Assembly: GCA_016199085.1 (NCBI GenBank) | Contig: JACQHJ010000003.1 | Location: forward strand, 103,517 to 167,516 | Reading direction: 5' to 3' | DNA length: 64,000 bases | DNA from: Candidatus Levyibacteriota bacterium | GTDB lineage: Bacteria; Patescibacteriota; Microgenomatia; Levybacterales; UBA12049 | Shown: positions 1 through 27,222 of the stretch, in pieces | Layout of the letters: each line of letters begins with the position of its first letter | Position numbering within the stretch: position 1 is the stretch's first letter | The notes under the pieces: model-generated | Told to the model about the DNA's origin: nothing | What the model saw: only the letters and a program-made list of their open reading frames with translations | The model's database searches: none | Made by a program: the position numbers and the translations under genes

Positions 1-748
1 TATTTTTGATATTTAGAAAATTGTGCCTTATCTCAAAAGCGATAAATAATGACCAGCCTATTAAAAATCCGACAAAAACAACCAGATAGTTTTTAGCAAG
101 ATCTACAAAAGCTTTGTTTAATTTAGATTTATAAAGCACTGCAAATAACATATAGAAAAATATGACCGCTCCCAAAAAAAGCGCCAGATAATGAAGTTGC
201 ATTGCTATCCCTAAAAGAATTCCTGCAAGAAAGAAAAGCTTAAGGCTACTTCTTTTTATAGCTTCGTAAATTACAAATAGAGAAAGAAGCGAGAAAAACG
301 GGAAAGGATTAGGATTCCAGGAAGATCTTGAATAAGAAGCAATTAAGGGTGAAATTGCATATAAAGCGGATGCAAAGACCGCAATACGTTTATTAAAAAA
401 TATTGAGCTGACTTTATAGACAAGAAAAACTGTTGCTATACCAAATAATGCAACCATGACTGCAGGGCCTACCGGATCGTAGTTAAAAATCCACAGGAAT
501 GGAGCCATAAAATAGTAATAGATGGAGCCAAGGAAAAATCCTCCAACCGATGACGTAGGACCTAGAAGAGTCAGTTCTCCGTGTAGTATTTCATAGACTT
601 TTAAGACGTCTCTTCCCTCATCTCCCAAAAAAGTCATGTAATCTGCTATTTTATAAAGCCTGAAAAAAGAGGCCAACAATAGTATTGCGATTAACAAAAG
701 ATTATCTTTAGTGAAAAAAGATTTTAAAATCTTTTTAATGTTGTTCAT
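1..748 (-). CDS. GT-C family membrane glycosyltransferase (ArnT/PMT-like), 5' part only; C-terminus lies beyond the window edge
   Basis: Not in the ORF track because it has no stop inside the window. Hand translation of the minus strand from ATG at 748-746 gives MNNIKKILKSFFTKDNLLLIAILLLASFFRLYKIADMTFLGDEGRDVL... followed by several predicted TM helices. The first-loop acidic GDEGRD motif after TM1 is typical of GT-C (GT39/GT83). The ATG overlaps the stop of the upstream GT2-GtrA gene as ATGA. Confidence 0.6.
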   Translation of the reverse strand, partial: MNNIKKILKSFFTKDNLLLIAILLLASFFRLYKIADYMTFLGDEGRDVLKVYEILHGELTLLGPTSSVGGFFLGSIYYYFMAPFLWIFNYDPVGPAVMVALFGIATVFLVYKVSSIFFNKRIAVFASALYAISPLIASYSRSSWNPNPFPFFSLLSLFVIYEAIKRSSLKLFFLAGILLGIAMQLHYLALFLGAVIFFYMLFAVLYKSKLNKAFVDLAKNYLVVFVGFLIGWSLFIAFEIRHNFLNIKN

Positions 749-1872
749 TGATGAGGTTTTTTTCGCCAAATAACAAATCTATACATTGTGAAGTTATAAA
801 TCAAAAGCACTCCTGTTGCCAAGACAAAATAGACATACGGCAGGGGAAATTCTCTACCAAATAATATTTCTCCTAGCTGGATAAGTCCTGACTGGATAAA
901 AAATACACCTGTATTGGAAGTTGCGAAAAAAGCTGCCATTTTCTTAAAATACGATCCCGCGGTTCCTGACTTTTCTTTTTTAAAAGTCCAGAGATTATTT
1001 AAATTATAGTTTGAAAAAATAGCAAGCTGGGCTGATAACTGGTTTGAAACGCCAAGAGGAAGAGTTGAACCTACCAACACTCTGTAAACAATAAGTTGTA
1101 GTAAAAATCCAATGCCTCCAACAATTAAAAACTTGCCAAACGATCCGTGGATCAGCCTTACGGTAATAACAAATACGAGCGTTCTTATAATAGTTTCTAT
1201 TCCCGGTATTTTTGATTTACCCTTTGTTCTATCTTTTGCGTTAAATGGAACTTCAGTAACCTTAAATCCGTCTAAGACTGCGTTATATAAAAATCCTACC
1301 TGGAAAGTGTAACCAGTGAATTTATCAAGCTTTGCACGCTCTTTCAAAAACACTTCTTTTTTAATAGCCCTGTATCCCCCTGTCCAGTCATCAATTCCCT
1401 TTCTTCCGAATAAAAGCCTGATAAACATATTGCCGTAAACCGACATTATCTTTCTGTGCACTCCCCAATCCTCTGGAATTGATCCTCCCTGGCTGTAGCG
1501 AGTACCGACTACAAAATCAAAACCTTCGTCAATTTTTTCTAAAAATGCAGGGATTTTTGCAGGATCGTGGAAAAGATCGGCATCCATTTCAAACATGACG
1601 TCTGCATTCATTTTTTCAACTGCATAAGTCATTCCCCGAATATACGCTGCCCCCAAACCGTTTTTCTCTCCTTCGTTTATATCGATATTGTCATACTTTT
1701 TCATTAAATCCCTTACAATATCACCTGTTCCATCAGGAGATGAATCATCGGCTACAAGAATAGACATTTTGTGATTAGTAATTTTAGGGAAAATTTCCTG
1801 TTCCAAGATATCAATCAAGCGCTCGATATTCCCTTTCTCATTATATGTGGGCACAACAATAACTACATTCAT
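745..1872 (-). CDS. GT2 polyprenyl-phosphate glycosyltransferase (DPM1/ArnC-like) fused to a C-terminal GtrA-like membrane domain
   Basis: N-terminus VVIVVPTYNEKGNI ... DADLFHDP is the DPM1/ArnC-type GT2 signature. The C-terminal ~110 aa are hydrophobic and GtrA-like (FLIVGGIGFLLQLIVY...). Confidence 0.8.
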   Translation of the reverse strand: MNVVIVVPTYNEKGNIERLIDILEQEIFPKITNHKMSILVADDSSPDGTGDIVRDLMKKYDNIDINEGEKNGLGAAYIRGMTYAVEKMNADVMFEMDADLFHDPAKIPAFLEKIDEGFDFVVGTRYSQGGSIPEDWGVHRKIMSVYGNMFIRLLFGRKGIDDWTGGYRAIKKEVFLKERAKLDKFTGYTFQVGFLYNAVLDGFKVTEVPFNAKDRTKGKSKIPGIETIIRTLVFVITVRLIHGSFGKFLIVGGIGFLLQLIVYRVLVGSTLPLGVSNQLSAQLAIFSNYNLNNLWTFKKEKSGTAGSYFKKMAAFFATSNTGVFFIQSGLIQLGEILFGREFPLPYVYFVLATGVLLIYNFTMYRFVIWRKKPHQ

Positions 1873-1889
1873 CAGCTTAGTTAATTAAA

Positions 1890-2843
1890 TCACAAACTCC
1901 TGAAATATTCTATGGTTCTTTGCAGTCCGTCTTCCAGCTTAATGCGCGGCTCCCAATCCAAAAGTCTTTTTGCTTTTGAGACATCGGGTTTTCTTTTATG
2001 AGGATCATCAATGGGAAGACTCTCCGAAAGGACAATCTCTGAGTCTGAATTAGTAAGTTTTTTTATTAAATTGGCATATTCAAGGACGCTTAATTCCTCA
2101 GGAGATCCAAGGTTGACAATCTCACCTTTTGTATCGGGGCTAAACATAAGTTTTATTAAACCCTCTACCAAATCCTCTACAAAACACAGTGACCTTGTCT
2201 GGTTTCCGTCACCAAAAACAGTTAGAGGTCTTTTCTCCAAAGCTTGCGTTATAAATTCAACGATCATTCTTTTGTCTTCTTTCATCATTCCCGGTCCGTA
2301 AGTATTGAAAATCCTGGCAATTCTTGCGTCAACATTTTTGCTTCTGACAAAATACGCAACTATTGTCTCTCCGAATCTTTTTGATTCGTCATAGACAGAG
2401 CGCGGACCCGTCGTTGAAGTATTTCCCCTATATTCCTCCGTTTGCGGATGCTCTAAGGGATCTCCGTATATTTCAGAGCTTGAAGTAAATAAAAACTTTG
2501 CATTTTGTTTTTGACTAAATTCCAAAAGCCTCATCGTCCCTGTAGTATTGGCAAGCATGGTCTCCAAAGGAAGAGCGTGGTAGCTTATTTTACTATGATG
2601 ATTGGGCGATGCGGGAGATGCAAGGTGGAAAACAAAGTTAGCTTTAATCTTGTCTGGAAGCGGCTTTGTAATATCTCTGTTTATAAAAGAAAAGTTAGGA
2701 TTTTTCTCTAAATCTTTAATTTTGCCTTTAGAGCTGCTTATAAAGTTATCTATAGAGATTACTTTTAGATTTTTATCAAGAAGTGCTTTACAAAGATGTG
2801 CCCCGATAAAACCAGCTCCACCCGCTACTAAACAAGTATCCAT
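1890..2843 (-). CDS. uxs: UDP-glucuronate decarboxylase (UDP-xylose synthase)
   Basis: Rossmann GGAGFIGAHL at the N-terminus. Strong identity to UXS1 across the protein (SSSEIYGDP, RIARIFNTYGPGM, LTVFGDGNQTRSLCFVEDLVEGL, DDPHKRKPDVSKAKRLLDWEP). Confidence 0.8.
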   Translation of the reverse strand: MDTCLVAGGAGFIGAHLCKALLDKNLKVISIDNFISSSKGKIKDLEKNPNFSFINRDITKPLPDKIKANFVFHLASPASPNHHSKISYHALPLETMLANTTGTMRLLEFSQKQNAKFLFTSSSEIYGDPLEHPQTEEYRGNTSTTGPRSVYDESKRFGETIVAYFVRSKNVDARIARIFNTYGPGMMKEDKRMIVEFITQALEKRPLTVFGDGNQTRSLCFVEDLVEGLIKLMFSPDTKGEIVNLGSPEELSVLEYANLIKKLTNSDSEIVLSESLPIDDPHKRKPDVSKAKRLLDWEPRIKLEDGLQRTIEYFRSL

Positions 2844-2924
2844 AATTTCTACACTTAATTGTAGCCTAAAACCGCCCTTGTGAAAAGCATGAGTTTTTGG
2901 TAAAGTAATATTTGAACTTAATTT

Positions 2925-3935
2925 ATGTCTAAAAAAGCATTAATTATAGGCGTTTCTTCCCAGGACGGTTCATACCTGGCCGAACTGCTCCTTAGTAAAG
3001 GCTACGAGGTCACAGGAACCGTAAGACACACTACAAACTTCTACCAGGAAAACATCACTCACCTCTACGGAAAGATAGGAATTGAAGCTGCGGATTTAAT
3101 TGATCTTGAAAGCCTTGCCAATGCCGTCAGAAAAAGTAAACCCGATGAAGTCTATAATATTGCCGCACAAAGTATCCCTGCAGACAGCTGGACTCATCCT
3201 TTCTATACGGGTGAGGTAACAGCTTTGGGTGCCGTACGGGCAATGGAGGCAGTCAGGCACTTTGCTCCTGGTGCCAAATTCTATCAGGCAACGAGTAGGG
3301 AAATTTACGGCAATATCCAAGCTGAAGCTGCAACAGAAGACCTTTTGTGCGATGCCAATAACCCATACGGCATAGCCAAGGCCTATGCTCACATGATGGC
3401 ACGCTGCTATAGAGAATCTTTCGGTATGTTTGTCTGTGGAGGAATCCTCTTTAACCACGAAAGTCCAAGAAGAAGCTTGCATTTTGTAACCAGGAAAATA
3501 TCGGCTGCTGCAGCTTGTATTAAAAATGGAGTCAAAAATCCGCCCCTAAATGAGCTTGGAGAACCGTTGGTTGATAAAAATGGCAAGCTCCACCTTGGTA
3601 ACCTGGATTCAAAAAGAGACTGGGGCTATGCAAAGGAATATGTAGAGGCAATGTGGCTTATCGTCCAAAATTCTACTCCCAAAGATTATGTGATAGGAAC
3701 AAACAAGACATATTCCGTAAGAGAGGCATGTAAGATTGCCTTTGACCATGTTGGTCTTAACTGGGAAGATCACGTTGTCTCAAATGAAAAGCTACTTAGA
3801 CCTACCGAGATTAAGGAGCTAAAAGGAGATTATTCTCTTGCTAAAAAAGAGCTTGGATGGGAACCAAAGACCTCATTTGAGCAACTTATGAAAATAATGG
3901 TAGAAGCAGATCTCGAGAGATTTAAAATCCACTAA
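2925..3935 (+). CDS. gmd: GDP-mannose 4,6-dehydratase
   Basis: KKALIIGVSSQDGSYLAELLLSKGYEVTG and NLDSKRDWGYAKEYVEAMW are typical of Gmd. Confidence 0.9.
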   Translation: MSKKALIIGVSSQDGSYLAELLLSKGYEVTGTVRHTTNFYQENITHLYGKIGIEAADLIDLESLANAVRKSKPDEVYNIAAQSIPADSWTHPFYTGEVTALGAVRAMEAVRHFAPGAKFYQATSREIYGNIQAEAATEDLLCDANNPYGIAKAYAHMMARCYRESFGMFVCGGILFNHESPRRSLHFVTRKISAAAACIKNGVKNPPLNELGEPLVDKNGKLHLGNLDSKRDWGYAKEYVEAMWLIVQNSTPKDYVIGTNKTYSVREACKIAFDHVGLNWEDHVVSNEKLLRPTEIKELKGDYSLAKKELGWEPKTSFEQLMKIMVEADLERFKIH

Positions 3936-4888
3936 GAGGTTTGTCTCCAGTATTCAAGAATTTCCTTTAAGGTAGCATCCAATGGAATTTGCGGTTTCCA
4001 GCCTGTTAGAGAATTAATTTTTGTATTGTCACATAAAAGCTCTGGGTTATCGCTTGGACGAAGAAGGGCTGGGTCTACTTCAACCTTAATTTTGGAATCT
4101 GAAAAAGAGAGTAAAATATTTAAGACATCTGACATCTTGTATGATCTTCCAGAACCTATGTTATAAACCTCTCCCGAAATACCTTTTTCCATTAAAAGAA
4201 CATAAGCCTGCATCATATCTTTCACGTCTGTAAAGTCCCTTTTGGACTCAAGGTTTCCGACCGTAAGAACAGGTTCTCTTTTGCCTTTTTCGATTTCTGC
4301 AATTTTTTTGGCAAAAGCGCTCGTTGCAAACTGGTCTGTCTGACCGGGACCGATATGATTAAAAGGTCTGACTCTAACAATATCCATTGAATAAGCCATA
4401 AAATACTGAAGGCCTATAAAATCTTGGGTAAGTTTTGAAACTGCATAAGGACTAATTGGTCTTAACGCCGTATCTTCATCAATGGGAAGATCTTTTGCAT
4501 CCACTTTTCCGTAGACTTCTGCCGATGAAATAATCATAATCCTTGGTTTAAGATCCAAGCTTCTGACTGCTTCCAAAAGATTTAATTGGGAATTGATATT
4601 ATTGGTCATAACCACGCTTGGCTCGCTAAAACTTTGGGCAGAAGACGCTATTGCTGCCAAGTGATAAATCTGATCAGGCTTAACTTTAGTTAAAACCTCC
4701 AGTACTGCCTTACTATCCATTAGATCAAGCTGGAAAAGGTTTAAATTATTCTTTATATCTTCTATTAAACTGAGGTTTTTCCCTAAGTGGTATGTTCCAG
4801 CCACCTCTCCCTTTTTAGACATGGTGAGGTTTCGGGCAAGATAACTACCCGCAAATCCACTAATCCCTGTAATAAGGATTTTTCTCAT
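3932..4888 (-). CDS. rmd: GDP-4-dehydro-6-deoxy-D-mannose reductase (Rmd-like short-chain epimerase/reductase)
   Basis: ITGISGFAGSYLA, PYAVSKL, RVRPFNHIGPGQ and VGNLESKRDFTDVKD match the pattern of Pseudomonas Rmd. It is convergent with gmd. Confidence 0.65.
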   Translation of the reverse strand: MRKILITGISGFAGSYLARNLTMSKKGEVAGTYHLGKNLSLIEDIKNNLNLFQLDLMDSKAVLEVLTKVKPDQIYHLAAIASSAQSFSEPSVVMTNNINSQLNLLEAVRSLDLKPRIMIISSAEVYGKVDAKDLPIDEDTALRPISPYAVSKLTQDFIGLQYFMAYSMDIVRVRPFNHIGPGQTDQFATSAFAKKIAEIEKGKREPVLTVGNLESKRDFTDVKDMMQAYVLLMEKGISGEVYNIGSGRSYKMSDVLNILLSFSDSKIKVEVDPALLRPSDNPELLCDNTKINSLTGWKPQIPLDATLKEILEYWRQTS

Positions 4889-6180
4889 TATCTTCCAACT
4901 CCCTGATAGGTAATCTCGAGTCTTTTAACTTCCTGCGGATTATAAATGTTTCTTCCGTCAAGTATAACCGGTTTTTTCATTACCTCTTTTATTTTTGCAA
5001 GATCAAGCTGTTTAAATTCATTCCATTCTGTAAGAACTATTAAAAGATCAGCGTCTCTTGCAGCCGAATATGAATCTTCACAAAACTCTACACCTGAAAA
5101 GATTTTTTTGGCATTTTCCATTGCAACCGGATCATAGGCTTTTATTTTTGCGCCATCCTTTAAAAGAGCGTTGATTATGGGAATTGACGGAGCATCTCTC
5201 ATGTCATCGGTGTTAGGCTTAAATGACAGTCCCAAAACACCAATCGTTGCGCCTTTAACATTGTTTCCTAGAAGTTTTTTGGCTTTGACAACTATGTCAT
5301 CCATTGCATCTGAATTTATTTTATCCACGGCTTTTAAAAGTTCGAAGTCATAACCATAAGAGTCGGCAATTGAGATTAACGCTTTGACGTCTTTTGGGAA
5401 GCAGGAACCCCCAAAACCTGCGCCTGGGGAAAGGAACTGATTTCCGATTCTTGCGTCATAACCTATTCCTTCCAGCACCTTTAGTCCGTCAGCTTCTGAT
5501 GCCTCGCTAAGTTTTGCAATTGCGTTTGAAAAAGATATTTTTGTAGCCAAAAATGCATTGGCAGCGTATTTAATCATCTCAGCTGTTTCAATATTTGTTA
5601 AAACATAATTTCCGTCAATTGGCTCGTGGAGTTCTACTAATAATTCCCGGGCTTTTTGGCTGTCTGTTCCGATGACTATTCTATCGGGATGCAACGTGTC
5701 TGATATTGCCTGACCTTCTCTTAAAAATTCAGGGACAGAGCCAAGGTCGTATTCGGCCTTTTGGGGTTTTACCTTTTCTATAATTTCCCGTGTCTTTTTA
5801 TTTGTTCCGACAGGCACTGTGCTTTTTGTGACAACAACCGTATATCCGTCAAGATTCTTACCTATCTTTTCGGCGACTTCAAAGACAACAGAAAGATCTG
5901 CTTCTCCATTTTGTTTTGGAGGAGTACCAACGGCAATGAAGACCACTTTTGAGGAAGGAATCGCCTGGTCATAATTAAGAGTAAACAAAAGCCTTCCTGC
6001 GTTAACATTTCTTTGGACGATTTCCGAAAGACCCGGTTCGTAGATTGGGATTATGCCTTTTTTAAGGTTTTCTATTTTTTCCTTGGTGTGTCCTATTACC
6101 CAGACAGTGTTTCCAAGATCTGCAAAAACAGCTGCTGTGACCAATCCCACATATCCGTGCCCTACAAAAGTTATTGTCAT
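4888..6180 (-). CDS. ugd: UDP-glucose 6-dehydrogenase
   Basis: ITFVGHGYVGLVTAAVFADLGN and the catalytic GFGGSCFPKD motif. Confidence 0.9.
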   Translation of the reverse strand: MTITFVGHGYVGLVTAAVFADLGNTVWVIGHTKEKIENLKKGIIPIYEPGLSEIVQRNVNAGRLLFTLNYDQAIPSSKVVFIAVGTPPKQNGEADLSVVFEVAEKIGKNLDGYTVVVTKSTVPVGTNKKTREIIEKVKPQKAEYDLGSVPEFLREGQAISDTLHPDRIVIGTDSQKARELLVELHEPIDGNYVLTNIETAEMIKYAANAFLATKISFSNAIAKLSEASEADGLKVLEGIGYDARIGNQFLSPGAGFGGSCFPKDVKALISIADSYGYDFELLKAVDKINSDAMDDIVVKAKKLLGNNVKGATIGVLGLSFKPNTDDMRDAPSIPIINALLKDGAKIKAYDPVAMENAKKIFSGVEFCEDSYSAARDADLLIVLTEWNEFKQLDLAKIKEVMKKPVILDGRNIYNPQEVKRLEITYQGVGR

Positions 6181-7046
6181 AAGTTTTCCTTTATAATAGA
6201 AAGTCCTTCTTCAAGTGTATGCATTACTACGCCAAGCCTTCTTATTTTAGCATTGTTCAAAGCTGATGAAAAGGGCTCAGGGGGACGACCCACTAAAAAT
6301 TCTTTTCTCGTAGTTTTAGATACCAAGCCCTGATCAAGATTGAATGTCTTTGCGATTAATAAAACCGCATCATACATACTTATGATTTGACTTCCGACGG
6401 CGTGATACACGCCCGTTTCGTCTTTTTCAATTAAAGTGTCTATTGCCAAACCCAGATCGTCGATAAAGGTGGGGGTAACCAATCTGTCTTCTAAAACTGC
6501 AATTGGTTTTTTCTCGGATAGCCAAGTTTTAAAAAATCTTACAAAATCCGGCTTTTCAAATGAAGCCCTGTATGGATATGCGAGCCTTATAATTAACCAA
6601 GGCGTTTGAAGTTGATTAACTATCTTTTCCGCCTCATATTTAGTTTTTGCATAGAAACTCAAAGGGTTTGGTACTGATCTTTCGCTAAAACCACCCACTG
6701 GCATATCGTCTCCTCCCAAAACCAAATCCGTTGAGAAATAAATTAATTTTTTACTTAGTTTACTGCAGGCTTTTGCGACATTGTCTGTTCCGACTACATT
6801 TATTTTCCAAGACTGGCTTTTTTCTCCCAAATCTCTCTCTTTCTCTGCCTGCTTTACATCGGTATAAGCAGCAAGATGCAAAACTATGTCTGCATCAAAA
6901 GAAGATATTGCTTTTAAGACAGAGTCGTAATCAGTAATATCAGCTCCTGTTGATCTGCTGATGTTTTCAAAAGTGTGTTTTTCTTTAAGAAGATCTACTA
7001 TTCTTGAGCCTATCAGGCCATTTAAGCCTGTTCCTAAAATTTTCAT
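6177..7046 (-). CDS. rmlD: dTDP-4-dehydrorhamnose reductase
   Basis: MKILGTGLNGLIGSRIVDLL...ADITDYDSV is the RmlD N-terminal pattern. There is a 4-bp overlap with ugd. Confidence 0.75.
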   Translation of the reverse strand: MKILGTGLNGLIGSRIVDLLKEKHTFENISRSTGADITDYDSVLKAISSFDADIVLHLAAYTDVKQAEKERDLGEKSQSWKINVVGTDNVAKACSKLSKKLIYFSTDLVLGGDDMPVGGFSERSVPNPLSFYAKTKYEAEKIVNQLQTPWLIIRLAYPYRASFEKPDFVRFFKTWLSEKKPIAVLEDRLVTPTFIDDLGLAIDTLIEKDETGVYHAVGSQIISMYDAVLLIAKTFNLDQGLVSKTTRKEFLVGRPPEPFSSALNNAKIRRLGVVMHTLEEGLSIIKENL

Positions 7047-7067
7047 AAGAAAAAGTTTGGCAATACA

Positions 7068-8087
7068 CTAAAGACCGTCATTGCCAAATTGTTTAGCGTA
7101 GTAATCCTTAAATTCCCCTGATTTGATTTTCCTCCACCATTCTTCGTTTTCTCTGTACCAATCAATTGTAATCTTAAGACCGTCCTCAAAATTGTGTTTT
7201 GGTTCCCAACCAAGCTCTTTTCGTATCTTTGACCAGTCGATGTCATATCTGCGATCGTTTCCTGGCCTATCAGCGACCATTTGAATCAGATCCTCATCTT
7301 TACCCATTAAAGAAAGAATTTTTTTAACAGTATCAAGATTTGACATACCGCTTTTTAACCCTCCTACCAAATACGTCTCGCCTATTTTTCCTTTTTCCAA
7401 AATGAGTTCAATTGCCGATATATGGTCTTCGACAAATAACCAGTCCCTTTCATTTTTCCCGTCTCCATGAATTGGGATTTTTTTGTCCTCCAACGCATTA
7501 GTTATAGCAAGGGGAATAAGCTTTTCGGGATACATTGCGGGACCGAAATTATTCGAGCAGTTGCTGATTGTTATGGGAAGGTTATAGGTATAAAAATATG
7601 CCCTGACCAAGTGATCCGATCCTGCTTTTGTAGCAGAATAGGGACTTCTGGGATTGTATTTTGTTTCCTCGTTAAACTTATGATCTTTATCAAGTTCCAA
7701 TGTTCCGAAAACTTCATCTGTTGAAATATGATGGAATCTTTGAATTTTATGTTTTTTGGCAACTTCCAAAAGAGTATAGGTTCCAACCAAATTTGACTGG
7801 ATAAAAGGCCATGGATCCATGATCGATCTGTCAACGTGGGTTTCGGCTGCAAAATGGACAACAATGCCGACTCCGTTCATGATCTTTTCTACCAAGGGCA
7901 TGTCAGATATATCGCCTTTAACAAATTCATAATTGGGGCTGTCTATTACCTGCTGAAGATTTACAAGGCTTCCGGCATAAGTGAGGTTATCGAGGTTGAC
8001 AATATTGTCGTCGGGATGGTTTTTGATCCAATAGTTGATAAAGTGTGAGCCGATAAATCCTGCTCCGCCGGTGACCAAAAGCTTCAT
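7068..8087 (-). CDS. rmlB: dTDP-glucose 4,6-dehydratase
   Basis: MKLLVTGGAGFIGSHF and HFAAETHVDRS, with RmlB-like sequence throughout. Confidence 0.9.
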   Translation of the reverse strand: MKLLVTGGAGFIGSHFINYWIKNHPDDNIVNLDNLTYAGSLVNLQQVIDSPNYEFVKGDISDMPLVEKIMNGVGIVVHFAAETHVDRSIMDPWPFIQSNLVGTYTLLEVAKKHKIQRFHHISTDEVFGTLELDKDHKFNEETKYNPRSPYSATKAGSDHLVRAYFYTYNLPITISNCSNNFGPAMYPEKLIPLAITNALEDKKIPIHGDGKNERDWLFVEDHISAIELILEKGKIGETYLVGGLKSGMSNLDTVKKILSLMGKDEDLIQMVADRPGNDRRYDIDWSKIRKELGWEPKHNFEDGLKITIDWYRENEEWWRKIKSGEFKDYYAKQFGNDGL

Positions 8088-8116
8088 ATTTGTCTTTTAA
8101 TCTTAACATGTCTTGT

Positions 8117-8146
8117 TTGTAAACTCAACTTAGATTGTGCTATATT
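8117..8146 (+). promoter_or_regulatory. sigma70-like promoter (TTGTAA - 18 nt - TGcTATATT, extended -10) upstream of rmlC, in the divergent rmlB/rmlC intergenic region
   Basis: Read from sequence: ttgtaa at 8117-8122, and tgctatatt at 8138-8146. Confidence 0.4.
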
Positions 8147-8153
8147 AGCCTAT

Positions 8154-8783
8154 ATGGACACAAAATATAAGCTTGCTCTTTCCCCTTCCGATCCAGGTTT
8201 TCCAGAGATGATAGAAACGACAGAAATTCCAGGTCTTTTAATTTACAAAAGAGAAACACACGAAGACGAAAGAGGTTTTTTCCATGAAATAGTAGAGCTT
8301 AGAGACCTTGAAAAAGTTTTAGGAAAAAAAATAAGTGTTGTCCAAAGTAATCATGCAAGATCAAAACCCGGAGTTATCAGAGGATTCCACAGTGAGCCCT
8401 GGGAGAAAATCATTTACGTGGCAAAAGGCGAGGTTATGGCTGTAATCGTTGATTTTAGAATTGATTCTCCTGCTTTTGGAAAGGCTGTAAAGATTATGCT
8501 TGGAGACAAAAGCCGAAATACAATTTATCTTCCTTTGGGAATGGGAAATTCATTATGCGTAACAGGAAATGAGGATGCTGAATATCTCTATCTGATTACT
8601 AACTATTTTGAAGGAAAACCAACTCCAGCTGTTTATTACAAAGACCCTATGCTGACAAAACAATTTGGAGGATGGCCAGTAGAAAATCCGATAGTGAGCG
8701 CCAAAGATGAAAGTTATCCGACTCTTAAGGAAAAATTCGGGCAGGAGGTAGATTTTTCAAAATTCCCTTGGTTAAACGAATAA
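8154..8783 (+). CDS. rmlC: dTDP-4-dehydrorhamnose 3,5-epimerase
   Basis: MIETTEIPGLLIYKRETHEDERGFFHE aligns to the RmlC N-terminus (MMIVIKTAIPDVLILEPKVFGDERGFF). The true start is probably the internal ATG at about 8208, because the first 18 codons have no RmlC counterpart. Confidence 0.85.
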   Translation: MDTKYKLALSPSDPGFPEMIETTEIPGLLIYKRETHEDERGFFHEIVELRDLEKVLGKKISVVQSNHARSKPGVIRGFHSEPWEKIIYVAKGEVMAVIVDFRIDSPAFGKAVKIMLGDKSRNTIYLPLGMGNSLCVTGNEDAEYLYLITNYFEGKPTPAVYYKDPMLTKQFGGWPVENPIVSAKDESYPTLKEKFGQEVDFSKFPWLNE

Positions 8784-9728
8784 CTACTCTGAAACTTTTA
8801 ATCCCAAAGTCGTTCTTTTCTCTAAAAATCCTATTGCCTTATCGACAATCCAATAGATAATAAATGGATATTTGTTTTTATAGTTTTTCTTATAAAAAAT
8901 CCTCATGGCACTAAATCTTTCCTTTTGAAGTCTTTTTTTGGTTTCAATGTTTGCCGTTGTTAACTCTTGGGTCTTTTTCTTGATACCGCTTGAGGCTCCT
9001 CCGATATGCATAATATTTGAAGTTCCAGCATAATAAATTTTATATCCTAATTTTTTAATATCCAGACAAAATTGCAGATCCTCACCGTAGAAAAAATAGT
9101 CCTCATCCCACCAGCCGACTTTTTCTCCAACCTCTTTCGGCATCATCATAAATGCCCCCTCTATCGCATCTACTTCATGGATGCTGTCAAAATCTTCCCA
9201 ACCCCTAGTGTATCCTGCAAAAATTCTGCTTTTAGGAAACAGTCTTTGGAGTCCCGAGAAATAACAAAGCGCATTCCAAGGAGTCGGAAAACCCCTGTGG
9301 CAATTAAAATCAATCTCTCCGTCTTTATTTATCAGCTTACAAGAAACAGCTCCTACATTTGGATTTTTGTCAAGAAATGAAATCATTTTATTAAGTGTTT
9401 CCTTATAAACAATCGTATCCGGATTTAGAAACAAAACGTATTTTCCCTTTGTATAGGCAACTCCCTTGTTGTTACCCTTGGAAAAACCTAAGTTCCCCCC
9501 GTTATCTATTATCTGAAATGTTTTTATAGATGTAGTTTCTTTATATTTTTTAAAAAACTCCAAGCTGCCGTCGGTTGAGCTATTATCCGCTACGATTACC
9601 TCGTACTCTCCTGATTTAACTTCATCGGAATAGTTTTCTTCAATCGATTTAACCGCATCTAGGGTTATTTCCTTGGTGTTGTAGGTCAAAATTATTATTG
9701 AAAGGGTAGGTCTTAAGTCTTTTTGCAT
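8784..9728 (-). CDS. Family 2 glycosyltransferase
   Basis: LSIIILTYNTKEITLDAVKSI...VIVADNSSTDGS is a GT2 signature. Confidence 0.8.
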   Translation of the reverse strand: MQKDLRPTLSIIILTYNTKEITLDAVKSIEENYSDEVKSGEYEVIVADNSSTDGSLEFFKKYKETTSIKTFQIIDNGGNLGFSKGNNKGVAYTKGKYVLFLNPDTIVYKETLNKMISFLDKNPNVGAVSCKLINKDGEIDFNCHRGFPTPWNALCYFSGLQRLFPKSRIFAGYTRGWEDFDSIHEVDAIEGAFMMMPKEVGEKVGWWDEDYFFYGEDLQFCLDIKKLGYKIYYAGTSNIMHIGGASSGIKKKTQELTTANIETKKRLQKERFSAMRIFYKKNYKNKYPFIIYWIVDKAIGFLEKRTTLGLKVSE

Positions 9729-9732
9729 ATCA

Positions 9733-10611
9733 TTAAATTCCTTTTACAGCTTGTTTATATGTATCTTTTAAATAATTATTGTTTAAAAGTATGCCGACAA
9801 GAATTAAAACATAGGCTTTTGTAAAAAGTAAAACTTTTAGAATTAGATATTCGGGATATGATTTATGTTTTTTGTAAAAATACAAAAGGTTTTTATAGAT
9901 ATTAACAATTGCAAAAGTCCTATTGGTACTGCCGTGTTCCTCGTGCAAAACATTTGTAAAAGGATAAAAATAGGTTAAGAATCCTTTTTGTTTTGCTCTA
10001 AAACAAAGCTCCATATCCTCCGTATACATAAAAATGTTTTCATCGAAACCATTCAGCTTCTCAAAAACATCTCTTCGTATCATAAATAACCCTCCTTTTA
10101 CCCAGTCTACTTTTTTAATTTCCCTGGGACTTTTATCAACCATTCCCAGCCTTTGTAAGCCGGCTAAAAGCATTGTCACCGAAAAAAGATTATAAAAACT
10201 TCCGCTACTTATTTGCAAAGATTCGTCCATATTTTTTAATTGTCCACCTAAAATCGAAACTTTTTGGTTTTTATTCAGATAATTAACCATTTCCAAAAGA
10301 CTTTTGTCTTTAACAACCGTATCGTTATTTAAAAATAACAAATATTCTCCCTCTGCCCCTTTAGCTCCGATATTGCATCCTTTTCCAAAACCATAATTTT
10401 GATCATTTTCAATTACCTTTGAATTTTTATATTTTTTGCTCTCAACTTCTTTTTTAATTTCGTCTGCTTCTTTGCCAGATGCATTATCAACCACGATAAC
10501 TTCCATTAGATTCTTTTCAAATTCGTCCCTAAATTGATCATATAAGGACTTAAGGCACGAAAGGGTTAATTCCTTCTTTTTGTAATTTAACGTAATGATT
10601 GAAATAAGCAT
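9733..10611 (-). CDS. Family 2 glycosyltransferase
   Basis: ISIITLNYKKKELTLSCLKSL...VIVVDNASG and FLNNDT are GT2 motifs. Confidence 0.8.
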   Translation of the reverse strand: MLISIITLNYKKKELTLSCLKSLYDQFRDEFEKNLMEVIVVDNASGKEADEIKKEVESKKYKNSKVIENDQNYGFGKGCNIGAKGAEGEYLLFLNNDTVVKDKSLLEMVNYLNKNQKVSILGGQLKNMDESLQISSGSFYNLFSVTMLLAGLQRLGMVDKSPREIKKVDWVKGGLFMIRRDVFEKLNGFDENIFMYTEDMELCFRAKQKGFLTYFYPFTNVLHEEHGSTNRTFAIVNIYKNLLYFYKKHKSYPEYLILKVLLFTKAYVLILVGILLNNNYLKDTYKQAVKGI

Positions 10612-22489: not shown

Positions 22490-24235
22490 CTACTTAACAA
22501 AACTGTAGATAAAAGTCTGCCCAAAGTTTTCAAAAAACAAAAGATTTGGATTATTATTTAACCGCCTTATTACGTAATCTCCGTCACCTAAAAGATAATG
22601 CTTATTTTTACTCAAAGCGTTGTATTCGTCCCTATTGACAACTATAAAGTTAACTCCCATTCCTTTTATTTTTGCCAAAGATTCATCGCTTGGAAAGTTT
22701 TTAAATAAAAACAGTACGTCTTCCTGCCATTTTTTTGGTGAAAAACCGCTGTAGCCGTTAACGACTTTTCTAAAGCTTTTTGTATAGAAATATTCCCTTT
22801 CAAGCTCAATATATGAATTAGGACTGTTCCAGTTATAGATTGGCATGATAATAAACTTTGAATCTTTAGAAGTTGTATTCATCCATCCATAAACACTTGG
22901 GAAATTATTTTTTGCTAAAACAGGATAAAATCTCATGGGAAAATTATATTCTGCAACTATACCTACAATTAAAATCAGGTAAATCACCCAAGACTTTTTA
23001 AAGTTTTTTAATATCAAAGGAAGAATTAGGGCAATTAAGATAGCCATACAAAAGATAAAAAGCATTTCCCATCTGGCTGAATTTCTAAAACCGTTAAAGC
23101 CTGGAATTATGTAATAAAAAAGTGCATAAGGCAAAATAACGGGAAACGGACTATGAATTGTCTGCCTAGCTAAATGAAGAGCAGGACCAAGGCTTAATAT
23201 AATACCTAAAATACCTGTTGTTAAAAAGCTTTTTTCAAAAATACCAATTTTTTGAAATCTTTTGATGCAATAAAAAATGACAAAGATAGATACCAAGCTA
23301 AATACCAAGCCTATATATCCTGGCTTTAACTCGTCGGTTCTTGAATACTTTTGAGCATTCGATATATTTAAAAGTAAAGGTTCTAGGATAGTGTGCTCGC
23401 TTGGGTAAATTAAGTCTTCGGGTTGAAGCGCAAAGTGAATAGAATCTCTGATATCCCTTTGTGCTTCGTATTCTTTATTAACATCCAAATACGGTTTTGC
23501 AATTATAAAACAAAGTATTAAGACCGAAAAGATAAGCAAAGCCGTTTTCCTATTAATAAGTTTTTTAATAATTTTTCTATCTTTAAAGTAAAGAAAAAGT
23601 AAATATATACAAAAAAAGAATAATAAAAAGTATGCAGGCAAAAAACTGTTATAAAACTGCAGGACAAAGAAAACCAAGGATAAAAAAAGAAAACGCACTT
23701 TAAAGTTTTTGGTAAAGATAATAAAAAACAAAATTGAAAGCGGAATCCATTGGATAGAAAGCATTTGTAAATGGGTTTTCTTATCCAAAAATGCCGGTGA
23801 GAAAATTATAAGTAATCCCGAGACTATTGCTGCCCAAAAATTCTTGGTTAAATAGAAAGATAATAGAAAGGTAAAAAAACCAACCATAAAGATTGAGGAA
23901 ATAAAAGTAAAATTAACGACTGCAATAGGTTGATTAATTAACCAAAGAGGAATAATGGAAAAAACAGCTGAAGTAATAAAAGTTTCTGAATATGCAAGAG
24001 AATTTATATAAGGAAAATAGATGTTGGCATTAAACAAGGACAAAGGATCGGTAAATAAAGAGTGGATTACCCAATTCATTATCCAAGCCTCAAGATATTG
24101 ATCACCGTAACCCGTCGTAAGCTTTCCCAAATTAAAAATAAGAGGATAGGTAATATAAATTGCACTAAGAAGAAAAATTGCAACTGCAATTATAACCTTA
24201 GAATGTTTTTGGATAAATTCTTTTAACCAAGACAT
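22490..24235 (-). CDS. Large polytopic membrane protein (GT-C-like; possible glycosyltransferase/YfhO-like), function unknown
   Basis: More than 10 predicted TMs with a soluble C-terminal domain. The start is trimmed to the internal MSWLKEF to avoid a 70-nt overlap with serC. Confidence 0.45.
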   Translation of the reverse strand: MSWLKEFIQKHSKVIIAVAIFLLSAIYITYPLIFNLGKLTTGYGDQYLEAWIMNWVIHSLFTDPLSLFNANIYFPYINSLAYSETFITSAVFSIIPLWLINQPIAVVNFTFISSIFMVGFFTFLLSFYLTKNFWAAIVSGLLIIFSPAFLDKKTHLQMLSIQWIPLSILFFIIFTKNFKVRFLFLSLVFFVLQFYNSFLPAYFLLFFFCIYLLFLYFKDRKIIKKLINRKTALLIFSVLILCFIIAKPYLDVNKEYEAQRDIRDSIHFALQPEDLIYPSEHTILEPLLLNISNAQKYSRTDELKPGYIGLVFSLVSIFVIFYCIKRFQKIGIFEKSFLTTGILGIILSLGPALHLARQTIHSPFPVILPYALFYYIIPGFNGFRNSARWEMLFIFCMAILIALILPLILKNFKKSWVIYLILIVGIVAEYNFPMRFYPVLAKNNFPSVYGWMNTTSKDSKFIIMPIYNWNSPNSYIELEREYFYTKSFRKVVNGYSGFSPKKWQEDVLFLFKNFPSDESLAKIKGMGVNFIVVNRDEYNALSKNKHYLLGDGDYVIRRLNNNPNLLFFENFGQTFIYSFVK

Positions 24236-24242
24236 TGAATAT

Positions 24243-25328
24243 TTAGGCAAATTCGGACAGTATCTTAATAAGAGTTTTAACTTGCAAAAGAGTATGTGCG
24301 GGAAAATTTCCAATCCTTACTTGTTTTTGTTTATTTTCACCATATCCGCTTCCTAAAATTATTCCTCTTTTTCTGCAAAAGGAAATTAAATCAAGTGAAT
24401 TTCCCTTGATCTTTGCTACAATTGTTGTCTTGGAACGAAGGCTCTTTTCGTTCACCAATGGAGATAAAATCTTACTTTTATCTAAAAAGCCATAAAGAAT
24501 ATCTGCTTTTTTAATTGTTTCTTTTCTTAATCTTTGTATCCCATATTTTCCCATATCTTTTAATACCCCATTTAAAAGAAATATCGCCAACACATTGGGT
24601 GTCTCTGGAGTTTCAGATTTTAAACTATATGAATAAAGAGTTGGGAGGTTGTGATATGAACCGATATCTTTTCCCAAATCCAAAAGTTTTTGGGATTTTT
24701 TTAGTGCTTTATCGCTTATTACGAGCACTCCAAGGCCTGCAGGTAATCCAAAACCTTTCTGAACTGAGAAAAATACATTATCAAGATATTTATATTCTAA
24801 GTCCCCAAAAGGAACTCCTGATACAAAGTCTACGGCAATGAGTAAGTTTTTATTTTTTCTTTTAAGATCATAAATTTTATCCATTGGAAAAACTATTCCG
24901 CTACTGGTATCGTTTTGGGTAACACATAAAAGCTCTATTTTGGAAAGATCAATTTCTTTTAATTTGTCTTCATCCAGCCCTTTTCCAAATTCTGCGGAAA
25001 TTTTGACTGGTTTTTTCCCCAAGTCTTTTGCTATATTAAAAAACTTTTCTCCAAAAGCTCCCGTTATAAGATGCAAGCTATTTTCCAAAACCAGATTATT
25101 AATACTTATTTCCATTCCTTCAGTTCCTGAAGAGATGAAAAATACATGAAAGTCTTGAGGGATATTCAAAAGTTTCTTAAGTAAAGCTACATTTTCCAAA
25201 AACAGTTGGTGAAAGAAATCACCCCTGTGGGAAATAGATAACACATCCTCATTAACTGCCTTTAATAAATGTTTTTGTACGCTTTTATAGTTTTGCGAAG
25301 GCCCTACCGTAAAAAAAACTTTTTTCAT
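24243..25328 (-). CDS. serC: Phosphoserine aminotransferase
   Basis: FTVGPS...SISHRGDFF...FHVFF and the PLP-lysine region QKGFGLPAGLGVLVI align to E. coli SerC. Confidence 0.8.
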   Translation of the reverse strand: MKKVFFTVGPSQNYKSVQKHLLKAVNEDVLSISHRGDFFHQLFLENVALLKKLLNIPQDFHVFFISSGTEGMEISINNLVLENSLHLITGAFGEKFFNIAKDLGKKPVKISAEFGKGLDEDKLKEIDLSKIELLCVTQNDTSSGIVFPMDKIYDLKRKNKNLLIAVDFVSGVPFGDLEYKYLDNVFFSVQKGFGLPAGLGVLVISDKALKKSQKLLDLGKDIGSYHNLPTLYSYSLKSETPETPNVLAIFLLNGVLKDMGKYGIQRLRKETIKKADILYGFLDKSKILSPLVNEKSLRSKTTIVAKIKGNSLDLISFCRKRGIILGSGYGENKQKQVRIGNFPAHTLLQVKTLIKILSEFA

Positions 25329-25329
25329 G

Positions 25330-27222
25330 TTAATAAAGTAATCTAAATTTTATTGTTTCTTCAATATTTTTAAGCTTAGTTTGTAAGTCATTTGAATATT
25401 CTTTGTTGATATCGGTAATTACACACCCAATTATATCATTTGTGCCTAAGATTTGGTTTTCAATATTTGCACCCGTTTCGGAAAGAGCTGTATTTATCTT
25501 TGCCAAAACCCCAGGAACATTTTTATGTATATGTATGAGTCTGTGAATTTTTTGCATTTGAGAAAGATTAAGGTTTGGAAAATTAACCGACAAAGTAGTA
25601 TTTCCAAGATCGATAAAATCTATCAGTTTTTTACCAACAAACTCTCCGATATCTTCTTGTGCTTCCTCCGTGCTTCCTCCGATGTGAGGAGTAAGAATAA
25701 CATTGGGTAAATTTCTAAGAAGGGAGTTAAATTTTTCACCATTGCCGTTTGGCTCATTGGGAAAAACATCCACGGCAGCACCCTTAATTTTTCCATTAAC
25801 AATATATTTATGCAAAGCTTGAATATCTACTATAAATCCCCTGCTCAAATTTAAGAATATCACTCCGTCCTTCATTTGCTTAAATTCTTTTTCACCAATT
25901 AAGTTTTGATTTGATTTTCTCCCATCTACATGTATCGCTATAACATCACTTATTTGTAAAAGCTCCAAAAGAGTCTGACATTTTCTTACGTTTCCAACTG
26001 CCAATTTCTCAACTATGTCATAAAAATAAACTTCCATACCTAAAGCTTGGGCGATAATTCCAAGTTGTGTACCTATATTTCCGTAGCCGACTATTCCCAA
26101 ACGTTTTCCCCTTACTTCATGACTTCCCTTTGCCGACTTATCCCAAACTCCACTATGTAACTTGTTACTTTTTTCAATTACGTTTCTAAAAAGAACTATT
26201 ATTTCCGCAATCGTAAGCTCGACTACGCTTTTGGTATTACTGTAAGGCGCATTAAAAACAACTATCCCTTTTTTCGTACATTCCAAAAGATCAATCTTAT
26301 CAGTACCTATACAAAACGCGCCTATGGCAATTAGTTTCGGGGCATTTTCTAAGACTTTTTTTGAAACAGCGGTCTTTGATCTGACACCAAGTATTGAAAC
26401 ATCTTTAATTTTTTCTATCAATGTTTTTTCATCCAAAGCATTTTCCAATAACTCGACAGTATATCCCTGGTCTTTAAATTTCTTAACTGCAGATTTATCT
26501 ATATTTTCAGTTAATAAAACCTTCATCTTGCTTTTTGGATAAGACAGAGCCCTTGGAAGACCGAGGGAAAACAAAAATTCATCAAAACTGTTAACTGTTA
26601 AATCAGCTTTTTTAACTACGTTTTCTCTTGTTACATTTTCGCAAAAGGCAACAAATTTTACTTTTTTATCTAATTTCTTTATCTCAAAATCCGTATATCC
26701 GTCTCCTAAAACAAATACATTTCCTTCTAAATGCAATGATTTTACGGCTCTTGCCTTACCGTTTTCTTGAGATAAAATATTTTTCTTATCAAATCCCAAT
26801 ACCTTATTGTTTTTTATAATGAAACTATTAGAAAGAATATGGTTTTCCAAAACACCAAACCTTTTTACAACAGGGTAAATATATTCTTTAAATCCTCCTG
26901 AAATAATATAAATACTATTTCTATTTTCCTTAAAAAACTCCTTGTTTCTTTCAATGGAAGGTGTAATTTTTGCTTTAAGATGTTTTATTAGTTTTTCTAT
27001 ATCTTTTTTTTCTATTTTTAGAAGAGACAATCTTTTTGATAAAGACTTTGAAAACTTTATTTTCCCTTCCATACCTAAGGCGGTAGTTTTCTTAATTTCC
27101 GAAGTAATTCTGTCTTTATTTAAATTACCCTTAAGAACAATCTCTGAGAGTTCGTCGATTGCCTCAGTTTGAATAAAAGTGCTGTCAAAATCAATTATGT
27201 AATAGTTTTTCATTTTTACCAT
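25330..27222 (-). CDS. serA: Fusion protein: N-terminal HAD phosphoserine phosphatase (SerB-like) + D-3-phosphoglycerate dehydrogenase (SerA) + C-terminal ACT domain
   Basis: N-terminal IIDFDSTF (DxDxT) HAD motif. The central 2-hydroxyacid dehydrogenase has GIVGYGNIGTQ and GAFCIGTDKIDL. The C-terminus ends in an ACT-like segment. Confidence 0.75.
   Translation of the reverse strand: MVKMKNYYIIDFDSTFIQTEAIDELSEIVLKGNLNKDRITSEIKKTTALGMEGKIKFSKSLSKRLSLLKIEKKDIEKLIKHLKAKITPSIERNKEFFKENRNSIYIISGGFKEYIYPVVKRFGVLENHILSNSFIIKNNKVLGFDKKNILSQENGKARAVKSLHLEGNVFVLGDGYTDFEIKKLDKKVKFVAFCENVTRENVVKKADLTVNSFDEFLFSLGLPRALSYPKSKMKVLLTENIDKSAVKKFKDQGYTVELLENALDEKTLIEKIKDVSILGVRSKTAVSKKVLENAPKLIAIGAFCIGTDKIDLLECTKKGIVVFNAPYSNTKSVVELTIAEIIVLFRNVIEKSNKLHSGVWDKSAKGSHEVRGKRLGIVGYGNIGTQLGIIAQALGMEVYFYDIVEKLAVGNVRKCQTLLELLQISDVIAIHVDGRKSNQNLIGEKEFKQMKDGVIFLNLSRGFIVDIQALHKYIVNGKIKGAAVDVFPNEPNGNGEKFNSLLRNLPNVILTPHIGGSTEEAQEDIGEFVGKKLIDFIDLGNTTLSVNFPNLNLSQMQKIHRLIHIHKNVPGVLAKINTALSETGANIENQILGTNDIIGCVITDINKEYSNDLQTKLKNIEETIKFRLLY

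Follow-up and report, generated by a model that had tools for sequence, protein, structure and literature searches.

In the three-component glycosylation systems GtrB/GtrA/Gtr* of Shigella and Salmonella phages, CsbB/GtcA/YfhO, and GacI/GacJ/GacK/GacL, a family 2 glycosyltransferase (GT2) synthase is combined with a GtrA-family four-helix element and a GT-C glycosyltransferase, and the Gac proteins serve rhamnose-rich cell-wall polysaccharides (PMC13390465, PMC11127046, PMC9574508). In the type-III dolichyl-phosphate-mannose synthase (DPMS) of Pyrococcus furiosus (PfDPMS; structures 5MLZ, 5MM0, 5MM1, and 9EP0), a GT2 domain of the GT-A fold, interface helices, and a four-helix GtrA-like domain form one polypeptide, and a 2026 paper treats type-III DPMS as a trait of hyperthermophilic archaea (PMC12992685). 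Here, we analyzed a 64,000-nt stretch (the window) of a Candidatus Levyibacteriota genome (assembly GCA_016199085.1, contig JACQHJ010000003.1, positions 103,517 to 167,516 of the forward strand), in which a gene for a GT2-GtrA fusion protein overlaps a gene for a GT-C transferase. Positions 1-10611 are a nucleotide-sugar island of this Candidatus Levybacteria genome (Patescibacteria; candidate phyla radiation [CPR]). Taken as a whole, the reading that we favor, with moderate confidence, is that the island ends in a two-protein form of the known three-component extracytoplasmic glycosylation system, with a GDP-sugar, most likely mannose, as the donor.

In the mechanism that we propose, the GT2 domain would move one sugar from a nucleotide sugar onto polyprenyl phosphate at the cytoplasmic face of the membrane, the fused GtrA-like domain would anchor the enzyme and may also assist in flipping the lipid-linked sugar, a role lately put forward for the Pyrococcus DPMS, and the GT-C would transfer the sugar outside the membrane to a protein or a cell-wall glycopolymer. 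The nucleotide-sugar enzymes of the island (UXS, Ugd, Gmd, Rmd, and RmlB/C/D) would supply UDP-xylose (UDP-Xyl), UDP-glucuronic acid (UDP-GlcA), GDP-D-rhamnose, and dTDP-L-rhamnose for the assembly of surface glycans in general; although encoded beside the GT2/GT-C pair, they are not necessarily its donor pathway. The parts of this reading differ in strength. We hold the fused-synthase architecture and the three-component logic with good confidence. That the donor would be a GDP-sugar or mannose is close to an even call, tilting slightly toward yes, while GDP-mannose itself falls just short of even, and the locally made GDP-D-rhamnose is less likely. Four points favor a GDP-sugar: the homology to DPMS and DPM1, the conservation of the sugar-contacting Asp and His, a base pocket like that of DPM1, and the fact that UXS was repeatedly lost from the locus.

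The fusion is encoded on the minus strand at positions 745..1872 (375 aa) and is a predicted polyprenyl-phosphate glycosyltransferase of DPMS-type architecture. It matches Glycos_transf_2 (PF00535) with 95.5 bits and GtrA_DPMS_TM (PF04138) with 53.2 bits (cut-off of 26.1) at residues 247-369, covering profile positions 1-117 of 117; PF04138, whose name is "GtrA/DPMS transmembrane domain", represents the four-helix domain found in type-III DPMS. The fusion shows 100% identity to a protein annotated from a Candidatus Levybacteria metagenome-assembled genome. Among solved structures, PfDPMS (5MLZ; E = 6.4e-35, 124 bits, residues 1-323) is the closest in sequence, and this match extends from the catalytic domain into the transmembrane (TM) domain. 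In the same Protein Data Bank (PDB) search, ArnC reached 47.7 bits (1e-11) and GtrB 35 bits (1e-7). An earlier note on the first 6,180 nt of the window had described the synthase as being of the DPM1/ArnC type; the protein groups with neither GtrB nor ArnC. The AlphaFold2 (AF2) model of the fusion (pLDDT of 81) gave the same ranking by Foldseek, with 5MLZ at the top (2.6e-20 over 390 columns), ArnC at 3e-13, and GtrB at 4e-12, and it has four long C-terminal helices (244-368) following helices at 189-241. A search of 1.8 billion cluster representatives returned many catalytic-only proteins of DPM1 size (~240-260 aa) at 40-50% identity as well as full-length fusions at 31-54% identity. Together, these matches place the fusion in the DPM1/DPMS group of predicted polyprenyl-phosphate glycosyltransferases. 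Matches to NCBIfam models (PgfS, AglJ, ArnC, halophile hexose, and PpgS) were weak, roughly equal, and all far under their cut-offs, so no curated family fixes the sugar.

Residue conservation was counted over 81 sequences (the window protein and 80 orthologs), with residue roles taken from the PfDPMS structures (PMC5526996) and from PMC12690121. The DXD motif D89-A-D91 of PfDPMS (metal, diphosphate) corresponds to D97 and D99, both invariant, with A98 in 79 of the 81 sequences; the acceptor-phosphate residues R117, R131, and S135 correspond to R125 (within TRY, where PfDPMS Arg117 lies in SRY), R140, and S144, invariant in all 81; the A-loop residues R202 and K208 correspond to R215 and K221, and the guanine contacts D39, G68, and L69 to D43, G72, and L73, all invariant. 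The contacts to mannose O2 and O3, D89 and H94, are matched by D97 and by H102 (80/81), and N277 of the TM polar pocket is matched by the invariant N288. Reading the donor from the guanine-contacting Asp was considered and rejected, since the UDP-using ArnC keeps the same Asp and the residue is thus nondiscriminating. The residue following DXD-x-Q is Asp in the UDP-glucose (UDP-Glc) enzyme GtrB (DADLQD) and Asn in ArnC (DADLQN), which uses the formylated aminoarabinose nucleotide UDP-Ara4FN (PMC12690121). After its DXD motif, the window protein carries the His of DPMS and DPM1 (H102), and the uracil-binding N77 of ArnC aligns with K70 in its base-pocket loop, EKNGLGAAYIRGM. This loop closely resembles that of human DPM1, which presumably reads KKLGLGTAYIHGM. 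Both this His and the base-pocket loop favor DPM1, though not decisively.

The "flippase-associated" label that the fused domain had been given has its only experimental support in a paper presenting flipped dolichyl-phosphate-mannose bound inside the TM domain of PfDPMS, in which a translocation role for that enzyme is itself a proposal (PMC12992685).

The GT-C gene (positions 1..748, minus strand) starts within the end of the fusion gene. Plus-strand bases 745-748 are tcat, and the GT-C start codon and the GT2 stop codon share the 4 nt ATGA, exactly as the earlier note had it. The gene runs off the start of the window, which holds the N-terminal 249 aa, and the remainder was taken from relatives, where orthologs are ~500-530 aa long; a full-length one at L004:11125-12714 has 529 aa (L numbers designate the loci of relatives). 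The N-terminus matches Pfam PMT_2 with 53.7 bits (cut-off of 26.1) and PMT with 23.4 bits (cut-off of 22.7), PMT_2 being a family common to ArnT and many uncharacterized GT-Cs. The sequence G-D-E-G-R-D (within FLGDEGRD) is invariant in 30 orthologs and lies in the first outside loop directly after the first TM helix, which is the place of the catalytic acidic residues in the GT-C_A fold class. As a query, the N-terminus returned solely truncated proteins (≤435 aa), and the full-length ortholog gave no match at E ≤ 1 in a sequence search of the PDB, the solved ArnT included. The fold was read from an AF2 model of the 428-aa ortholog P0281 (pLDDT of 87, pTM of 0.89), which had 23 Foldseek matches in the PDB at E ≤ 1e-3, all of them GT-C enzymes of the GT-C_A fold: AglB, STT3, and PglB at ~3e-6 to 1e-3, ArnT 5EZM at 1.2e-4 (TMq of 0.57), and also Pmt4 (TMq of 0.63) and ALG12 (TMq of 0.60). 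The fold match to ArnT is thus no better than those to the oligosaccharyltransferases AglB, STT3, and PglB, to Pmt4, or to ALG12. The description of this protein as "ArnT/PMT-like" is right at the fold level only, because what it shares with ArnT is the PMT_2 family and the generic GT-C_A fold, with no sequence match in the PDB. An assignment as a Pmt (GT39) ortholog was rejected: the window protein scores 19.8 bits against the NCBIfam Pmt equivalog NF058602 (cut-off of 800), and the 529-aa ortholog has PMT_2 and a weak STT3 match only, with neither MIR nor PMT_4TMC.

To see how the pair is placed in relatives, we compared 80 loci from one-genome-per-species assemblies, all Levybacteria-like and 79 of them informative, across which the fusion is 52-87% identical. 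In all 79 informative loci, the gene immediately downstream of the fusion is the GT-C, with a 4-nt overlap in at least 23, and the linkage of the two genes claimed earlier is thereby borne out. The order RmlB-RmlD-Ugd-Rmd-Gmd-UXS-GT2GtrA-GT-C is found in about 70 of the 79, down to 52% GT2 identity. The neighborhood is hence conserved, but not specifically so: clustering of open reading frames (ORFs) showed the flanks, with RmlA-like, Nudix, CAP-domain, SecD/SecF, and unrelated genes, to be equally syntenic over ~20 kb across the 80 loci, and since the flanks are just as conserved, much of the conservation of gene order is lineage synteny. For this reason, gene order was not accepted as proof of coupling. 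Nor was a 4-nt overlap accepted as proof of a shared pathway, because such an overlap (6177-6180) also joins Ugd to RmlD, a gene of another pathway. At its extreme, the synteny could mean that the gene order is simply inherited, that the fusion and the GT-C do not cooperate, and that neither is tied to the sugar-nucleotide genes. However, insertions concentrate at two borders, upstream of RmlB and downstream of the GT-C, and are much rarer inside, so that the stretch from RmlB to the GT-C behaves as a unit; the overlapping pair also recurs in two distant relatives (L081 and L087) whose other neighbors differ; and the pairing of a synthase with a GT-C is established three-component logic (PMC11127046, PMC13390465). 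We consider mere inheritance of gene order very improbable. What does stand from the earlier note is its general logic, in which a predicted polyprenyl-phosphate glycosyltransferase with its own GtrA-like domain would be tightly coupled to a GT-C.

The distant relatives are fusion proteins at 38-54% identity in 10 contexts. In L081 (301-9416), Gmd is followed by GT2GtrA and the GT-C and then by a GT2, a GT87/MptA_B-like GT-C, a methyltransferase, a weak GT-C-like protein, and a YfhO GT-C; L087 has GT2GtrA, a GT-C, and a GT2, and L092 has UXS, GT2GtrA, and a GT-C. L083 has RmlB, RmlC, RmlD, TrmD, and GT2GtrA with a GT2-PMT_2 fusion nearby, and L090/L091 place the gene in a polysaccharide cluster of the Wzx type that also has YfhO and PMT_2 GT-Cs. 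The order is GT2GtrA, a short-chain dehydrogenase/reductase, Wzx, a GT2, and UXS in L084, and GT2GtrA, a GT2, and Ugd in L086 and L088; L089 has Ugd, a Gmd-like gene, UXS, and GT2GtrA. A GT-C is thus adjacent to or near the fusion in L081, L083, L087, L090, and L092, and from these contexts, the fusion is a regular component of surface-glycan loci, often with a GT-C partner. The several GT-Cs of L081 could all draw on one lipid-linked sugar. As an observation apart, L083:6886-9075 encodes a single protein of 729 aa composed of a GT2 domain and a PMT_2 GT-C domain, the GT-C part being 41% identical to the N-terminus of the window GT-C, at a distance of 1.8 kb from the GT2-GtrA gene.

Several points weigh against the favored reading, some of them in the fusion itself. 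The type-III DPMS group is defined by 89-DADxQHPP-96 (x being L, F, or Y), Arg117 (SRY), Arg131, Ser135, and Lys178 (KIL), and in the TM domain by the polar-pocket residues Asn248 and Asn277 and the gating Phe338 (PMC12992685). The window protein has DADLFHDP instead, with Asp103 in place of Pro95 in 80 of the 81 sequences. At the metal ligand Q93, it has F101, where 44 sequences of the family have Q, 19 have F, and 18 have S; T189, a position with T or I in the family, takes the place of the sugar/phosphate contact K178 and lies within a DPM1-like GYTFQ; and N248 is replaced by Q259, with N in 49 of 81. Membership of the archaeal type-III group was rejected at these three positions. Taken by itself, the TM domain has only weak similarity to that of PfDPMS (E = 0.12), in an alignment that ends before Phe338, leaving Phe338 and Arg341 outside it, and the hosts are unlike as well, one being a mesophilic CPR bacterium and the other a hyperthermophilic archaeon. 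Because the strict motifs are not matched, the protein is best described as a DPM1-like catalytic domain joined to a type-III-like GtrA domain. Also on this side is the comparison with human DPM1: the GT2 catalytic domain has 38% identity over 228 aa (E = 2e-38) to what is presumably the human sequence, to be taken as a lead and not as a database result. The published identity between PfDPMS and the human enzyme is 39% (PMC5526996).

The other points against a GDP-sugar concern UXS and are at the same time the case for the donor that the earlier note had proposed. There, Ugd and UXS would provide UDP-Xyl, the GT2-GtrA fusion would make polyprenyl-phosphate-xylopyranose from it, and, after flipping, the GT-C would transfer the xylose to an acceptor outside the cell. 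The UXS gene (positions 1890..2843, minus strand; UDP-glucuronate decarboxylase, 317 aa) encodes a predicted true UXS1-type UDP-xylose synthase. It matches human UXS1 with an E value of 2.5e-84 (286 bits, residues 4-316), and its catalytic motifs SSSEIYGD, YDESKR, and NQTR align with the human STSEVYGD, YDEGKR, and SQTR. The best UDP-GlcA 4-epimerase (Bacillus, 6ZL6) reached 1e-38 only, the ArnA model 91.9 bits (cut-off of 777), and the 4-keto-pentose synthase model also ~92 bits, far under its cut-off, and profile searches found no formyltransferase domain in the protein. The enzyme is thus of the UXS type presumed earlier and neither of the ArnA type nor an epimerase. Moreover, UXS is immediately upstream of GT2GtrA in 70 of the 79 relatives, with a 4-nt UXS/GT2 overlap in 30 of 69; in the window lineage, the inverted Gmd sets off UXS-GT2GtrA-GT-C as a separate transcription unit; the order Ugd-Gmd-UXS-GT2GtrA is kept in L089 at 39% identity, despite flanks unrelated to the Levybacteria synteny; and Ugd or UXS is near GT2GtrA in 5 of the 10 distant contexts (L084, L086, L088, L089, and L092). 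PfDPMS has some donor promiscuity (PMC5526996).

Against xylose, the GT2 resembles DPM1 and DPMS, the users of GDP-mannose, and not ArnC or GtrB, and it has retained the Asp and His that contact mannose as well as the DPM1-type base-pocket loop. UXS has been precisely deleted from the locus in 9 of the 79 relatives, leaving 35-131 nt between Gmd and the GT2, and these loci fall at ~5 positions in the GT2 tree (L016; L064; L054; L071 and L073; L053, L057, L055, and L062), which points to about five independent losses. All the while, GT2GtrA, the GT-C, and, where the contig reaches, Ugd were kept, and the catalytic residues of the GT2 are unchanged. Among the distant contexts, L081 has Gmd and not UXS directly upstream of the GT2GtrA-GT-C pair, and L083 has no UXS within 10 kb of GT2GtrA. 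In this operon, 4-nt overlaps also link genes of different pathways, and the synteny extends over the full 20 kb. The data do not point specifically to xylose as the lipid-linked sugar, and we judge it unlikely that a DPM1/DPMS-type synthase was recruited to UDP-Xyl in Levybacteria, with its own GtrA-like domain flipping the product and the GT-C transferring it to the CPR surface.

The same architecture and mechanism could also serve another sugar, such as an acid sugar derived from UDP-GlcA (glucuronic acid [GlcA] or galacturonic acid [GalA]), glucose, or N-acetylglucosamine (GlcNAc). The dodecaprenyl-phosphate-GalA of Rhizobium is an example of a lipid-linked acid sugar. Every Levybacteria locus long enough to include the Ugd position has retained Ugd, even where UXS has been lost, the arrangement GT2GtrA-GT2-Ugd in L086 and L088 would suit this donor, and the curated families leave the sugar unfixed. 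However, DPM1/DPMS is the nearest characterized group by a wide margin, and no sequence feature for the recognition of a carboxylate or an N-acetyl group was identified in the GT2 fusion. We find such a sugar possible but doubtful, and a GDP-sugar remains the donor that we prefer.

Compared to the three-component systems, the locus has the same three elements, a GT2 synthase, a GtrA-family four-helix element, and a GT-C, and like the loci for rhamnan decoration in Gram-positive bacteria, it contains rhamnose-pathway genes (PMC13390465, PMC11127046, PMC9574508). It differs in that the synthase and the GtrA-like element are fused, so that all three elements are in two overlapping genes, in that the synthase is DPM1-like and not GtrB/CsbB-like, and in that the GT-C is of the PMT_2 and not the YfhO or Gtr* type. 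The actinobacterial systems of Ppm1/Pmt O-mannosylation, polyprenyl-phosphate-mannose-dependent MptA/MptB, and PimE are similar in that a DPM1-like polyprenyl-phosphate-mannose synthase feeds GT-C enzymes on the outside; the window GT-C keeps the Asp-Glu of loop 1, and in L081 a GT87/MptA_B-like GT-C follows the pair. The low score against the Pmt equivalog and the lack of MIR and PMT_4TMC in the 529-aa ortholog set the GT-C apart from these systems, and Ppm1 is not known to have a fused GtrA-like domain.

The likeness to the Arn pathway, which adds 4-amino-4-deoxy-L-arabinose (Ara4N) to lipid A, is one of analogy only. A UDP-pentose precursor derived through Ugd is nearby, and a GT2 lipid-phosphate sugar synthase, small TM helices of the flippase type, and a GT-C of the PMT_2/ArnT family are present. 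However, the decarboxylase is of the UXS type, which reduces its product to UDP-Xyl, and not of the ArnA type; the GT2 scores 52.7 bits against the ArnC model NF007986 (cut-off of 529); and the GT-C has the generic fold match to the solved ArnT without a match in sequence. The ORF list and profile searches showed no ArnB aminotransferase, ArnD deformylase, or formyltransferase in positions 1-10611, and the locus has no Arn-specific component, so the "Arn-like" description is not upheld. No lipid A is expected in CPR bacteria.

Neither is a lipid-linked pentose as exceptional in bacteria as the earlier note had it, since lipid-linked Ara4N, decaprenyl-phosphate-arabinose, undecaprenyl-phosphate-ribofuranose and -xylofuranose (GT136 systems), and decaprenyl-phosphate-methylthioxylose have been described (PMC11127046). 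As in the proposed xylose pathway, these donors, Ara4N aside, provide a lipid-phosphate pentose for a GT-C on the outside. They are made from phosphoribosyl pyrophosphate or methylthioadenosine by phosphoribosyltransferase-type synthases and use MATE flippases, in contrast to a route from UDP-Xyl by a GT2, and none of their genes are in this locus. Among the papers searched, none was found on undecaprenyl- or dolichyl-phosphate-xylose or on lipid-linked xylopyranose. The novelty of the xylose proposal would thus be limited to a xylopyranose donor made by a GT2; if true, this would be the first such lipid-linked donor in bacteria and a new donor class, and a mannose-synthase scaffold would have changed both nucleotide and sugar specificity.

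On present evidence, the locus is an ordinary CPR example of an already known type of system. Its importance is in the architecture and in the host. Fused GT2 and GtrA-like domains are common in mesophilic CPR bacteria, with 6075 proteins at E ≤ 1e-20 and 548 cluster representatives at E ≤ 1e-30. These bacterial fusions fail the strict type-III motif set yet have the same architecture and some of the polar-pocket residues, and at two of the positions that define type III, about half of the Levybacteria orthologs carry Gln and Asn as the archaeal enzymes do. The abundance of the fused architecture in the CPR bears on the proposed flippase role of the fused domain. CPR bacteria are uncultured episymbionts with an almost uncharted surface chemistry, and a conserved synthase/GT-C pair beside three nucleotide-sugar pathways is a concrete, clonable entry to their surface.

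The remaining genes of the island explain why the first 6,180 nt do not constitute a minimal four-gene module. The GT-C, the GT2-GtrA fusion, UXS, and Ugd are all present with the domains given to them before, as profile and structure-database searches confirmed, but the region has six genes: Gmd and Rmd, between UXS and Ugd, had been omitted, and the cluster continues to 10611. The four were a selective pick from an operon that also encodes the pathways to GDP-D-rhamnose and dTDP-L-rhamnose. Gmd (2925..3935, plus strand, 336 aa) is a GDP-mannose 4,6-dehydratase that matches P. aeruginosa Gmd 1RPN (E = 3.6e-88) and Pfam GDP_Man_Dehyd (333 bits), with 319 bits against TIGR01472, under its cut-off of 415. 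Rmd (3932..4888, minus strand, 318 aa), the GDP-6-deoxy-D-lyxo-4-hexulose reductase of the GDP-D-rhamnose pathway, matches Aneurinibacillus Rmd 2PK3 (E = 5.2e-82) and reaches only 77 bits against the GDP-fucose synthase model (cut-off of 500). Ugd (4888..6180, minus strand, 430 aa), the UDP-glucose 6-dehydrogenase, has the three UDPG_MGDP_dh Pfam domains, scores 464.6 bits against the NDP-sugar dehydrogenase model TIGR03026 (cut-off of 189.8), and has TuaD as its best equivalog (534 bits). It overlaps by 4 nt with the gene for an RmlD-like dTDP-4-dehydrorhamnose reductase (6177..7046, minus strand, 289 aa; Pfam RmlD_sub_bind at 171 bits and TIGR01214 at 152.6 bits, under the cut-off of 224). 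Further on are RmlB, dTDP-glucose 4,6-dehydratase (7068..8087, minus strand, 339 aa; TIGR01181 at 466 bits, cut-off of 365), and an RmlC-like dTDP-4-dehydrorhamnose 3,5-epimerase (8154..8783, plus strand, 209 aa; Pfam dTDP_sugar_isom at 128.8 bits and TIGR01221 at 116.7 bits, under the cut-off of 156). Because Gmd and Rmd join RmlB/C/D, three nucleotide-sugar branches are encoded (UDP-GlcA/UDP-Xyl, GDP-D-rhamnose, and dTDP-L-rhamnose). The island is completed by two soluble-type GT2 glycosyltransferases of 314 and 292 aa (8784..10611, minus strand; Glycos_transf_2 at 89 and 83 bits). This two-GT2 block has the same position only in L002-L004, L007, L008, L010, and L012, the closest relatives of the window, and in L039, homologs of the two genes sit further upstream and inverted.

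UXS and Gmd are divergently oriented, and the intergenic region between them (2844..2924) is likely the promoter region of the UXS-GT2GtrA-GT-C unit. It has a single sigma-70-like site (minus strand, 2886..2858); in the scans, neither promoters nor terminators were more frequent than expected by chance, with 26 promoter-like sites found against 30 ± 5.6 expected. Two types of Gmd occupy this position in Levybacteria (L001-L080). One is inverted as in the window (14 loci, 68-89% identity to the window Gmd), and the other, in the majority of loci, is co-directional with ~50% identity to it. This looks like an in-place replacement, which made UXS-GT2GtrA-GT-C a separate transcription unit. Another variation is seen directly upstream of RmlB, where a gene for an RmlA-like nucleotidyltransferase, often accompanied by a Nudix gene, is found in most relatives (L005-L080); in the window and those closest to it, this place is taken by RmlC and the two GT2 genes, and the locus lacks RmlA.

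The genes of the window beyond 10.6 kb are of the housekeeping kind and encode a CAP-domain protein, FtsEX, RF2, Nramp, SecA, tRNA synthetases, and enzymes of lysine biosynthesis. Scans of the whole window (1-64000) for Rfam families at the gathering score and for tRNA genes found neither. A 607-aa ORF with a TTG start at 22490-24313 had no Pfam match at E ≤ 1e-4. At 25330-27222, a protein of 630 aa with HAD phosphatase-like, D-3-phosphoglycerate-dehydrogenase-type, and ACT domains may be a SerB-SerA fusion, and its gene adjoins that of a class-V aminotransferase (24243-25328). Two adjacent genes at 42860-45831 resemble subunits of ATP-citrate lyase or of citryl-CoA synthetase/lyase, the first having Citrate_bind and ATP-grasp domains and the second CoA-ligase and citrate synthase C-terminal domains; such a pair is unexpected for a reduced CPR genome. 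Finally, the lysyl-tRNA synthetase encoded at 32427-33953 is of the class I (archaeal-type) family.

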